From the sequence record PZ049718.1: a DNA stretch of 3,634 nucleotides. One strand, written 5' to 3'. The notes beneath the pieces were generated by a model. The model was not told the origin of the DNA and ran no database searches. It worked only from the letters and a program-made list of their open reading frames with translations. The stretch is from a phage. This document shows positions 1 through 2,414 of this stretch, piece by piece (position 1 is the first letter of the stretch; each line of letters starts with the position of its first letter). Position numbers and translations under genes: made by a program.

Positions 1-1015
1 CCGCAGTGGCGGGAATGCGCCCGAGGCGTACCGTTCCCCTGCCCTCTCGCGCATTAATTTGATCGACCACGGCCATCAGTCGATCGGCACCTAGGCGCGG
101 GGCGGCGGCGAACAGGTCACCAGTGAATTCGCCTCGCTGCCGCAGATCCATCAGCAGCACCTCGGCTTTGCTGTAGGCGTAGCCATGCCGGTAGATCGCT
201 TCAAGCCCGCGCACGGCTGCAGCGGCGAGCACGCGAGTGTCGTCGGTCGGGTACGGCAGAGGGCAGCTGATGGCGTTCGCGTATCGCGGCTGGTTGGGGT
301 TGTGCATGCCGGTACGGATGGCAACCTGCAGCGCGCCGGCCAGACTTTGCTGGGAGCGCAGCTTCTCGGCGGCCTTGGTAACGTAGGCCACGACCGCCTC
401 GCGGATCGGTGCGATGTCGCGCAGGCGGCTGCCAAACATTTTCGAGGAGCAGATCATCTGCCGGGGCGGTACCGCCTCCTCCAGCTCAAGGCAGGAGATT
501 CCATGCAGCTCGCGGGCGGTTTTCTCCAGCACCACGCTGAATTGCTTTCGCAGCGATGCGGAATCGTACTGCGCTAGGTCCCAGGCGGTCTGGATGCCCA
601 GCGGGCGCAGGCGGGTAGTCAGGCGCCGGCCGACGCCCCACACTTCGCTCACCTCGGTCATCTTCAGCAGCCGGTCGCGTCGCTCCGGGTCGCTTAGGTC
701 GATCACACCGCCGGATTTGCGCCAGGTCTTGGCTGCCCAGTTGGCGAGCTTAGCCAAGGTCTTCGTTGGCCCGATGCCCACGCCAACCGGTATGCCGGTC
801 CACCGCAGCACACGCTCACGCGTCTCATACCCTAGCGGCACCAGGTCGCCGGTTATCCCCGTCAGGTCGGCAAACGCCTCGTCGATGCTGTACACCTCGA
901 TTCGCAGGGAACATTCCCTCGATGACGTCGTCATCACCCTGGCGCTCATGTGTCCGTTTATGTGTAATAGAAAGTCAATAAGAACCGGGCCATGCTCGCC
1001 CTTGGAGCTTCTCAT
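1..1015 (-). CDS. umuC: Y-family translesion DNA polymerase, UmuC/RulB family (Pol V catalytic subunit), 5'-truncated remnant. Recognisable homology covers about 2-955; the N-terminal ~85 aa are replaced by unrelated sequence; the 3' end continues past position 1. Probably a disrupted, non-functional gene.
   Basis: Minus-strand translation reads ...HMSARVMTTSSRECSLRIEVYSIDEAFADLTGITGDLVPLGYETRERVLRWTGIPVGVGIGPTKTLAKLANWAAKTWRKSGGVIDLSDPERRDRLLKMTEVSEVWGVGRRLTTRLRPLGIQTAWDLAQYDSASLRKQFSVVLEKTARELHGISCLELEEAVPPRQMICSSKMFGSRLRDIAPIREAVVAYVTKAAEKLRSQQSLAGALQVAIRTGMHNPNQPRYANAISCPLPYPTDDTRVLAAAAVRGLEAIYRHGYAYSKAEVLLMDLRQRGEFTGDLFAAAPRLGADRLMAVVDQINAREGRGTVRLGRIPATA and continues off the edge. It matches E. 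coli UmuC motifs recalled from memory: YSIDEAF (active-site Asp-Glu), the GIxxTKTLAKLAN helix-hairpin-helix, VWGIGRR, and the C-terminal LNAKEGRGT. It is absent from the ORF track because its stop lies beyond the left edge. The same frame has an in-frame stop at 1070-1072 and a first in-frame ATG at 1013-1015, but UmuC similarity begins only near 955. The symbol is used in the family sense; rulB, mucB or impB cannot be told apart from sequence alone. Confidence 0.85.
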   Translation of the reverse strand, partial: MRSSKGEHGPVLIDFLLHINGHMSARVMTTSSRECSLRIEVYSIDEAFADLTGITGDLVPLGYETRERVLRWTGIPVGVGIGPTKTLAKLANWAAKTWRKSGGVIDLSDPERRDRLLKMTEVSEVWGVGRRLTTRLRPLGIQTAWDLAQYDSASLRKQFSVVLEKTARELHGISCLELEEAVPPRQMICSSKMFGSRLRDIAPIREAVVAYVTKAAEKLRSQQSLAGALQVAIRTGMHNPNQPRYANAISCPLPYPTDDTRVLAAAAVRGLEAIYRHGYAYSKAEVLLMDLRQRGEFTGDLFAAAPRLGADRLMAVVDQINAREGRGTVRLGRIPATA

Positions 1016-1464
1016 ACCCAACCGGTATGGCTGTAGCTTCTGAGGAGATCGCCGTCGCTCACCGGATCATCCGGTCATCCTGTTAGTAACCGGTCAAAGC
1101 TGATCTGTTACATCGAAGGCGGACACCTGTCCATCGACAACACCCCTGCCGAGCGGTGAACCGCCCTCCCATGTACATATGACCAAAACGTCGCCGTTAT
1201 CCTACCGTTCTGTCATGCCTACCCACGACGGAGTATTGACGGTCTCCGTCCTATAACATAGCTTTTCCGAAAGGCGCTCAAGTACATATCGTCATGTGCA
1301 TACGAGCCTCGTGTCGTTAAAAGAAATGGTTGGTGCCGCATGAAAGTGCTCTTCATGATGCCGTTCGGCGTGTCGAGCTTCTCCGCCCCCATCAAGATCA
1401 AGGCTTCGTCTTGGTGTTAGTGCCAGATGCACGTCACCTTGCGGTGCAGGAATGGAGTGTGAAC

Positions 1465-1827
1465 ATGAAAGCAGAAACGGAATCGCGGATTTTTTCGGTG
1501 GACGAATATGTCCGTCCGTCTAACGGCGAACCGATCCGTTCAGTTGTTCTGGAGACCAACGATTCTGTCGTTGTAGTTTGGCACGCCTACCCTAGGCAGG
1601 AAATAGCTGCCCATGTCCATCCTCACGGCCAAGATACTTGGACGGTTATCTCAGGTGAGGCCAAGTATTATCAAGGCAACGGCGTAGAAATTCATCTTAA
1701 AGCTGGAGATATTGCCATTGCAAAACCTGGGCAAGTACATGGTGCCGTGAACTCTGGTCCAGGACCTTTCATATTTGTCTCCGTGGTTGCGCCGGGCAGT
1801 GCAGGTTTTGCGTTATCTGAGAAATAG
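1465..1827 (+). CDS. Cupin-domain protein (cupin_2-type small beta-barrel, probable metal-binding), 120 aa
   Basis: This is the in-frame inner start of track ORF 1330..1827. The ATG at 1465 is preceded by GGAG at 1454-1457 (7 nt spacing); the longer upstream extension has no ribosome-binding site. Translation MKAETESRIF...AAHVHPHGQDTWTVISGEAKYY...KAGDIAIAKPGQVHGAVNSG carries both classical cupin motifs: HxH(x)3-4[E/Q/D](x)6G as H50-V-H52...G64, and G(x)5-6PG(x)2H(x)3N as G81...P88-G89-QV-H92-GAV-N96. Confidence 0.8.
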   Translation: MKAETESRIFSVDEYVRPSNGEPIRSVVLETNDSVVVVWHAYPRQEIAAHVHPHGQDTWTVISGEAKYYQGNGVEIHLKAGDIAIAKPGQVHGAVNSGPGPFIFVSVVAPGSAGFALSEK

Positions 1828-1850: not shown

Positions 1851-2414
1851 ATGAATACACGAGTATTTACGTTCGCTGGTGGAGAAACGGGGGTTTGGCG
1901 CGTTGTTGCGATGAATGCCGTGGCAGGAGCCCCTCTCCCTGGAATCCCACGGCTCAACGTAGCCGCTGGCTCTGTTTCGCCGCAGCCTCCGGGCACCAAA
2001 TGGCTCCTTCGCGGGATAACGAGTAACGAGCGCTATGTCGTGCGTGAAGAGAAGGATCGTCTCGTGGCGAAGCAGCCAAGCTTGGGTCGAGCAGAGGCTA
2101 CCTGCGCCGCCCTGATCCCTATCCGGAAAAACCCCTCATGGTGGGGACTGTCTCAAGACGAACGCCGGAAGATTTTTGAGGAACAGTCCCGTCACATTCA
2201 CATCGGGCTCCAATATCTCCCTGCTGTGGCCCGCCGCCTCCACCATTGTCGGGACCTGGGCGAGAACGAACCCTTCGACTTCTTGACTTGGTTCGAATAT
2301 TCCCCGTCTGATGAGACGGCCTTTAACAGGCTTCTGGCCGAACTCCGAGCCTCGGTGGAGTGGCAGTATGTCGACAGAGAAATCGACATCCGGCTAGTGC
2401 ATGAGCCGGCCTAG
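1851..2414 (+). CDS. cld: Chlorite dismutase family protein, short clade-2 (Nitrobacter/Klebsiella-type) Cld-like haem enzyme, 187 aa; probable chlorite O2-lyase
   Basis: Track ORF 1851..2414. The ATG is preceded by AGAGGA at 1841-1846 and lies 23 bp after the cupin stop, so the two genes are probably co-transcribed. Translation contains hallmarks recalled for the Cld family: LIPIRK followed by the adjacent Trp pair W97-W98, then SRHIHIGLQYLPAVARRL with a candidate proximal His115 (2193-2195) and distal Arg128 (2232-2234) 13 residues apart, the same spacing as the His/Arg pairs in characterised Clds, followed by FDFLTWFEY. Length and lack of a signal peptide fit the short cytoplasmic clade-2 enzymes. 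The family call rests on memory of motifs, not a search. Confidence 0.75.
   Translation: MNTRVFTFAGGETGVWRVVAMNAVAGAPLPGIPRLNVAAGSVSPQPPGTKWLLRGITSNERYVVREEKDRLVAKQPSLGRAEATCAALIPIRKNPSWWGLSQDERRKIFEEQSRHIHIGLQYLPAVARRLHHCRDLGENEPFDFLTWFEYSPSDETAFNRLLAELRASVEWQYVDREIDIRLVHEPA

Follow-up and report, generated by a model that had tools for sequence, protein, structure and literature searches.

Background

Integron-like elements (ILEs) that reside in rulB/umuC genes and carry type III effector genes have been described in Pseudomonas syringae (Arnold and Jackson; PMC4542609, PMC5424326). ILE-FH1 and ILE-FH4, which also reside in rulB, have tetR in addition to three recombinase-like genes (Rhodes et al. 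2014, PMC4542609); elements of the ILE-FH kind sit 123 bp into rulB, where their insertion creates a GAT repeat (PMC4542609). Related classes of elements are the GInts (PMC5385486) and the strand-biased circularizing elements, SEs (PMC10214605). Regarding the cargo discussed here, synteny of cld and cupin with 'UV resistance genes' has been noted in P. stutzeri A1501 (PMC3735179), and cld and cupin have been reported to be statistically linked with a UmuC fragment of 73 aa (PMC9751292); neither PMC3735179 nor PMC9751292 defines the element itself.

We analysed a stretch of 3,634 nucleotides from a phage sequence record (PZ049718.1), hereafter the window, in which about 500 bp of non-coding DNA (959-1464) precede a cupin gene and a chlorite dismutase family gene (cld). 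With a probability of roughly 0.78, this leader is the non-coding DNA just inside the integrase-distal end of a 4,843-bp element and is built as a mosaic instead of an array of recombinase sites. The element resembles the P. syringae ILEs in its target gene, its two-recombinase module, its ends and its insertion point at a Tyr codon; its integrase gene starts about 60 bp from the truncated rulB', matching the literature, and the large recombinase of the effector element on pPP1-1 of P. syringae pv. pisi is 81 % identical to that of the cupin-cld element. It differs in cargo, with effectors in P. syringae compared to cupin-cld and an IS66 relic here. The end sequences, the 6-bp spacer and the insertion in both orientations that we report below are not described in the P. 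syringae ILE papers (PMC4542609, PMC5424326).

Extent and content of the element

To define the boundaries we compared five contexts, followed by relatives from plasmids and GTDB genomes. Copies 100 % identical to the window from 955-957 onward are found in different umuC genes on 12 Pseudomonas/Stutzerimonas plasmids. The element starts at base 958, and the identity begins already at 955-957 because the flank bases agree by coincidence. The leader thus lies at an element end, as the earlier note had proposed from the letters of the window. The umuC genes occupied by identical copies number at least 10, and these copies occur in either orientation and across genera; several assemblies hold stand-alone contigs of 4,847-4,854 bp that consist of the cupin-cld element alone. 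From these sequence comparisons we infer that the element is mobile. Two slightly longer elements (L055 and L018) have the same leader as the window, while the umuC flank of the window itself was found in none of the loci fetched.

The features of the window are as follows.

1-957, minus strand: umuC/rulB-like Y-family polymerase gene, 3' part (Pfam IMS, IMS_C, IMS_HHH, DUF4113)
958-978, no strand: integrase-distal element end, TTATGTGTAATAGAAAGTCAA (consensus of 24 distinct ends)
979-1044, no strand: stretch common only to the Klebsiella-type cupin-cld module (about 82 % identity in the alignment with L002)
1045-1084, plus strand: IS66-family transposase relic, piece 1 (tblastn, and Pfam on the Klebsiella-type homologue)
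1085-1167, plus strand: IS66-family transposase relic, piece 2 (tblastn, weak Pfam match, L002 alignment)
1168-1305, plus strand: upstream region common with the Klebsiella-type variant (alignment)
1306-1450, plus strand: lineage-specific stretch, absent from the Klebsiella-type variant
1451-1464, plus strand: cupin ribosome-binding region with GGAG at 1452-1455, common to all cupin variants including the integron cassette
1465-1827, plus strand: Cupin_2 domain gene, cargo (Pfam PF07883, E=2.2e-13)
1851-2414, plus strand: chlorite dismutase family gene, cargo (Pfam PF06778, E=1.1e-7; annotated so in 12 identical plasmid copies)
2559-3634, minus strand: 721-aa tyrosine recombinase gene, 3' half (annotation of identical copies; Pfam Phage_integrase)

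The complement of 1-957 encodes the C-terminal three quarters of a UmuC/RulB-type polymerase, and the window from 958 on corresponds to the left part of an element whose content is cupin, cld and two tyrosine recombinases of 339 and 721 aa. Of the large recombinase gene the window contains only the 3' half, and the gene order is taken from identical full copies. In those copies the 721-aa gene extends past the window; next comes the 339-aa gene, which starts 61 bp from the other element end. The core genes between the cargo and the integrase-proximal end are two. Both recombinases match Pfam Phage_integrase; NCBIfam has no model for the large one. With insertion at a fixed position in umuC and a XerC/D-like integrase followed by a large recombinase, the cupin-cld element, judged by sequence, appears to belong to the two-recombinase, rulB/umuC-targeting integron-like elements.

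A conserved end of 21 bp and a fixed insertion point

The integrase-distal end starts with TTATGTG(G/T)AAT at base 958. At the other end the sequence is GCATTCCACYTAA+CTTAMT; here CTTA(A/C)T stands between GCATTCCAC(Y)TAA and the flank. Bases 958-969 form a terminal inverted repeat with this other end (TTAGGTGGAATG), and 970-978 are a conserved subterminal stretch. The inverted repeat is imperfect and covers the outer 11-12 bp.

Across 24 distinct integrase-distal ends we obtained the 21-bp consensus TTATGTGGAAT.gAAa.tCAA, with conservation at background level past position 21. Among about 24 distinct relatives with other cargo, 958-978 is the sole conserved part of the distal end. The terminal repeat (positions 1-11) served as the search pattern for the ends of relatives, and therefore the independent evidence consists of positions 12-21 and the flank reconstruction described below. 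Relatives whose large recombinase is 52-93 % identical have nothing in common past 21 bp at this end, and in the P. syringae pv. pisi relative only about 150 bp separate the distal end from the effector gene, with none of the motifs flagged in the window. Arm-type repeats conserved among the relatives were not found. The limit of conservation at 21 bp and the short P. syringae leader place the recombinase site at the extreme left edge and indicate that the palindromes of the leader are not features of the family. We consider 958-978 a putative site of recombinase binding and crossover.

The insertion point is the Tyr codon of the UmuC motif FSSNYxLY, with umuC cut after the first base of the codon. 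For 22 independent insertions (9 with cupin-cld and 13 with other cargo), removing everything from the six bases beside the integrase-proximal repeat up to and including the distal repeat restores the in-frame motif FSSNYxLY(A/G)DMSxRVM. Insertion is thus precise and duplication-free, and this Tyr codon is each time split behind its first base. In the window, the target's own six bases are 952-957 (GTCCGT) and adjoin the element. In two insertions of opposite orientation (L005 and L010), the insertion point is displaced by exactly 6 bp, with the result that the distal repeat is always the one next to the six bases of the target. The 6 bp at the integrase-proximal end are constant per clade (ATTAAG, AGTAAG or AGTTAG).

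These observations are compatible with a scheme in which strand exchange would occur at the border with a 6-bp target spacer. Mobility would be served by 958-978 alone, through the terminal inverted repeat and the short subterminal stretch, presumably bound by recombinase, and the predicted circle junction would be ...ATTCCACCTAA-CTTAAT-TTATGTGTAAT... We raise tentatively, as a reading that we would not bet on, that the 21-bp end stands for a widespread and mechanistically uncharacterised class of two-recombinase elements using a single fixed border of a 6-bp spacer at the UmuC Tyr codon. The element keeps its own 6-bp spacer on the integrase-proximal side and the target's spacer on the distal side, and it can insert in either orientation. 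By analogy with integron attC x attI recombination, this spacer arrangement and the use of either orientation suggest the exchange of one strand resolved by replication, rather than the footprint-carrying route of Tn554 and the SEs.

A second variant of the leader

Only one other variant of the leader exists in the collections searched, in the cupin-cld module of about 480 Enterobacterales plasmids, mostly from Klebsiella. This Klebsiella-type module has a distal end of its own (TTGTGTGGAATAG), located in a remnant of samB/umuC, carries the same cargo and retains the last ~90 bp of the large recombinase gene before it is truncated, which together indicate a fossil of the same kind of element. 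A metagenome scan with an invariant block of the leader (see below) returned the two known leader variants only, plus IS26/IS insertions in them.

The identity between the window and L002 is 82.5 % over 958-1083 and 83.7 % over 1084-1310, close to the identity of 78.5 % at the third codon positions of cupin between the two variants, suggesting that the leader evolves roughly neutrally. With two leader variants only, these conservation tests are low in power. In place of positions 1306-1450 the variant has about 55 bp, which match the 5' portion of a cupin cassette carried by a class 1 integron on P. aeruginosa pHS18-89. Homology among all versions of cupin resumes at 1451, just 5' of GGAG.

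A decayed IS66 gene in the leader

Positions 1045-1167 read as a decayed and internally deleted IS66-family transposase gene. Piece 1 translates as GDRRRSPDHPVILL, where intact genes have GGPPxxPV(I/V)LF, and piece 2 as SNRSKLICYIEGGHLSIDNTPAER, after which come a stop and a frameshift. Compared to the Klebsiella-type variant, the window has a deletion of about 335 bp between the two pieces. In that variant, a 215-aa ORF upstream of cupin contains an IS66 transposase domain by Pfam. Once frame-patched, this homologue matches positions 101-262 of 284 in Pfam DDE_Tnp_IS66 with E=5.8e-25. By tblastn with an Azotobacter IS66 transposase, piece 2 has 14/23 identities to residues 422-444, and piece 1 matches too. 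The window fragment alone matches profile positions 238-266 at E=0.016, below the family cut-off; as this match is weak, the IS66 assignment rests on the ~84 % DNA identity to the variant.

We found none of the features of an intact IS66 (tnpA, tnpB, terminal repeats, 8-bp duplication), only internal fragments with stops, frameshifts and deletions. Since an internal fragment is all that is left, with tnpA, tnpB and ends missing, this is a relic and not an element. As for terminal repeats, the ends were not identifiable in the intact Azotobacter copy either. The right end of the IS66 might conceivably lie in 1168-1305, where a stretch GGCGCT(C/T)A(A/G)GTAC is only vaguely like an IS66 end of the GTAAGCGCC type. 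Further to the left, 979-1044 may be more of the relic. These bases are absent from family members other than Klebsiella-type cupin-cld. The IS66 match can be extended into them only by a weak gapped tblastn alignment that is not significant alone, and the Pfam match starts at GGPP.

Taken together, the leader beyond 978 would be made of hitch-hiking and cargo DNA and would not be part of the mobility machinery. In this mosaic, the IS66 relic (~1045-1167) is followed by ~140 bp common to both variants, ~145 bp specific to the lineage and the cupin ribosome-binding site.

Motifs flagged in the leader

The earlier note had drawn attention to several short repeats in the leader, and all of them are present, two with corrections. 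The palindrome ACCGGA-TCA-TCCGGT at 1061-1075, described as 6-3-6, is actually a 7-1-7 arrangement, ACCGGAT-C-ATCCGGT, and the repeated CCGGTCA lies at 1090-1096 as given and at 1071-1077 instead of 1072-1078. We confirm GACGGAG-N10-CTCCGTC at 1227-1250, with TTGACG of its loop at 1236-1241, the 8-bp palindrome ATGTACAT at 1171-1178 and the recurrence of GTACATAT at 1173-1180 and 1282-1289. A further inverted repeat, CATACC-N5-GGTATG, is found at 1013-1029, within the stretch 979-1044.

How far these motifs exceed chance was estimated with 2000 dinucleotide shuffles of the leader region, in five tests whose P values are uncorrected. For inverted repeats with arms of at least 6 and a loop of at most 12, the leader has 6 windows (4 distinct sites) where the shuffles lead one to expect 1.4 (P=0.017); arms of at least 7 give P=0.076. 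The other values are 0.85 for the 8-bp palindrome, 0.27 for a 7-mer direct repeat within 30 bp (CCGGTCA) and 0.56 for an 8-mer direct repeat within 150 bp (GTACATAT). The flagged motifs are therefore real but weakly above chance, in agreement with the caution, already voiced when they were flagged, that each of them is short enough to arise by chance. The mild enrichment of short inverted repeats (P=0.017) may nevertheless point to some function of the leader motifs.

The palindrome at 1061-1075 and the first CCGGTCA lie in piece 1 of the IS66 relic and the second CCGGTCA in piece 2. The palindrome ACCGGATCATCCGGT corresponds to the codons S-P-D-H-P-V of the relic. At its position the Klebsiella-type variant has CCACCAAATCTTCCGGTC, so the palindrome is specific to the lineage of the window. 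Neither it nor CCGGTCA is kept in this closest variant, where the sequences are ACCAAATCTTCCGGT and AACTGGTTA; CTGGTTA takes the place of the second CCGGTCA there, and the distance between the two positions is ~335 bp greater. Of what the earlier note had hoped an alignment with the other end and with related elements would reveal, the terminal inverted repeat was found, but the flagged motifs are not conserved. They would be by-products of decaying DNA, with the repeat at 1227-1250 as a possible exception.

A candidate promoter for cupin-cld

A candidate sigma-70 promoter can be drawn across the repeat at 1227-1250, with TTGACG (1236-1241) as -35, a spacer of 17 bp and TAGCTT (1259-1264) as -10. 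In a hexamer scan, the same TTGACG is the top -35 in both leader variants, whereas the -10 differs, with TAGCTT (8/12) here and CATAGT (9/12) in the variant. We regard TTGACG in the loop as the putative -35 of the cupin-cld promoter; it is the best candidate in the leader and plausible as such.

It is conceivable that 1211-1264 goes beyond this and forms a regulated promoter-operator for cupin-cld, where a repressor or activator, perhaps one responsive to chlorite or reactive chlorine, would act on the inverted repeat that spans the -35. Besides the shared -35, this idea draws on a 36-bp run (1211-1246) that is invariant between the variants amid DNA otherwise 84 % identical and that extends over the left arm and loop of GACGGAG-N10-CTCCGTC and most of its right arm. 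The single change in the right arm (C to T) still permits a G-T/G-U pair, and on one metagenome contig an IS has inserted at the equivalent of 1212/1213, leaving GACGGAG-N10-CTCCGTC and TTGACG still beside cupin-cld. Against these points, an identical run of 36 bp at 84 % identity has an estimated chance probability of ~0.09 and is not significant alone. The -10 boxes are poor and unlike between the variants, owing to a 2-bp indel, and a stricter sigma-70 promoter scan found no promoter. Furthermore, the element is devoid of a regulator gene, and the cupin integron cassette works without the 1211-1264 region. We therefore view a regulated operator with some doubt, and a chlorine-stress-responsive operator in the block 1211-1250 as a lesser possibility.

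Recombinase arm sites and other functions

A different reading takes the two palindromes (1061-1075 and 1227-1250), along with the short direct repeats, as arm-type or accessory recombinase sites comparable to the arms of phage attP. In its favour are the position of the motifs less than 300 bp from the element end, the mild enrichment of short inverted repeats shown above and a hairpin at 1061-1075 that is stable in DNA form (z=-3.3). Yet the relatives with large recombinases 52-93 % identical are alike over 21 bp only at this end, the ~150-bp leader of the P. syringae relative has no such motifs, the 1061-1075 palindrome is IS66 coding relic that is missing from the closest variant, and the CCGGTCA copies are ~335 bp further apart there. 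Arm sites are on this evidence highly improbable. The expectation of a recombinase site in the leader agrees with the putative site at 958-978, while the flagged palindromes fall outside this 21-bp conserved end.

The absence of a convincing ORF from 959-1464 holds: what exists are ORFs of 30-60 aa on the minus strand, the longest having 60 aa (1219-1401), and an in-frame TTG extension of cupin from 1330. Six-frame translations of 1168-1470 matched no Pfam family, an Rfam search of the leader returned nothing at E<=1, RNA folding of 1166-1464 was no better than that of shuffles (z=+0.19), and a scan for terminators gave matches at chance level only. The length of the untranslated stretch (190-500 nt) and the existence of these two ORFs could suggest a structured regulatory RNA or a small-protein gene, but with the Rfam and folding results against an RNA, no Pfam match, and both ORFs crossing a segment missing from the other variant, this is the least credible explanation of the leader and we give it next to no weight.

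Significance and comparison with known systems

For annotators, the preferred reading as a mosaic means that the leader comprises an element end, a dead IS66 gene and the DNA upstream of the cargo, which is mostly a negative result. The analysis does supply exact boundaries, TTATGTG(G/T)AAT and ATTCCACYTAA+CTTAMT, and a target, the Tyr codon of FSSNYxLY in UmuC. These give a simple rule to find small elements that move cargo between the genes of SOS polymerases on plasmids and chromosomes. Cargo of the family includes chlorite detoxification, type III effectors, CBASS defence and others, and the cupin-cld module of ~480 Enterobacterales plasmids can now be recognized as a fossil of such an element.

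The element is not an integron. With the integron-integrase model, for which the cut-off is 265 bits, the small recombinase reaches 65 bits, and no attC-like sites bound cupin-cld in the element, a true cupin cassette existing elsewhere.

Compared by features, the element is similar to Tn554 of Staphylococcus and the SEs in its strict target, its duplication-free insertion and its imperfect terminal inverted repeats, and also in having an asymmetric 6-bp sequence beside one end (PMC10214605). Unlike them it has no TnpC/Srap-like third gene. Transposition with a travelling footprint, as in Tn554 and the SEs, is not what we observe, since the integrase-proximal 6 bp are constant within a clade and the target's 6 bp are always distal. 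In tblastn against plasmids, there were no staphylococcal matches among the top genera listed.

With ILE-FH, GInts and SEs the cupin-cld element has in common that it is site-specific, non-conjugative and driven by tyrosine recombinases, and ILE-FH also targets rulB. Those systems have three or four conserved core genes, for two recombinases, a protein with the recombinase fold and a small auxiliary protein, compared to two here. Assignment to the three-recombinase ILE/GInt/SE group was rejected on the basis of the two core genes and of BLASTP, which showed no similarity to a neighbouring three-gene element (E=0.29 and E=1.7). The two kinds of element do meet on plasmid pPae-WC20-001-01, where an ILE-FH-type element adjoins the cupin-cld element; unlike ILE-FH, the cupin-cld element has its insertion point in the Tyr codon near residue 78 and makes no repeat.

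Insertion orientation and copies of the element

Two plasmid loci carry the 4,843-bp element in opposite orientations within one and the same umuC (L004, about 8002-12846, and L005, about 8002-12845), and a third locus with this umuC and this element, L013, was included in the comparison. The insertion points of L004 and L005 differ by exactly 6 bp. The integrase-distal repeat is always adjoined by the 6 bp of the target, in either orientation.

We also observed entire contigs of 4,847-4,854 bp (L014, L015 and L016) in three Pseudomonas assemblies that consist of exactly the element plus a few flanking bases. The occurrence of such stand-alone contigs suggests that the element is present in multiple copies per genome or as a free circular form.

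Other multi-recombinase elements are found near the cupin-cld element on the same plasmids, namely at 14416-18678 of L005, encoding proteins of 392, 576 and at least 455 aa, and at 22051-25501 of the plasmid locus L001, with genes of 617 and 538 aa. In L005 this neighbour adjoins the umuC that the cupin-cld element interrupts. On two contigs from metagenome-assembled genomes, of Acidobacteriaceae (L033, 8771-8910) and Sphingomonas (L034, 8076-8215), a family member's proximal repeat has, 125 bp upstream, a distal-type repeat followed by CTTAGA. The arrangement may reflect a tandem or nested insertion.

Relatives of the element

Four further loci (L007 to L010) have both recombinases and the ends in common with the element and differ greatly in cargo. 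They carry a type III effector, a CBASS defence operon, a TcdA-like glycosyltransferase with an ABC exporter, and crcB/enolase fluoride-resistance genes.

The Klebsiella-type cupin-cld module is related to the element and has decayed: its own distal end lies in a samB/umuC remnant, its IS66 relic is longer, and of the large recombinase gene it retains only the final ~90 bp. The module is widespread, being found in K. oxytoca pKOR-5873 (L002, 4538-6480) and about 480 other Enterobacterales plasmids. On one metagenome contig (L110, 2612-4300) its leader is interrupted, at the equivalent of window position 1212/1213, by an IS with a 472-aa transposase, and an intact IS66-family transposase gene lies 3' of cld.

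History of the cargo genes

At third codon positions the window and the Klebsiella-type variant are 78.5 % identical in cupin (1465-1827) and 92.6 % identical in cld (1851-2414). This much greater divergence in cupin suggests that the two cargo genes differ in their history.

Cupin is also found without cld, as a gene cassette of the class 1 integron of P. aeruginosa pHS18-89 (L085, about 5950-6500), where the cassette order is qnrVC1-cupin-arr-2-dfrA. The cassette cupin is 96 % identical to window positions 1451-1827, the match starting at base 1451. In the Klebsiella-type module, about 55 bp 5' of cupin match the 5' part of this cassette.
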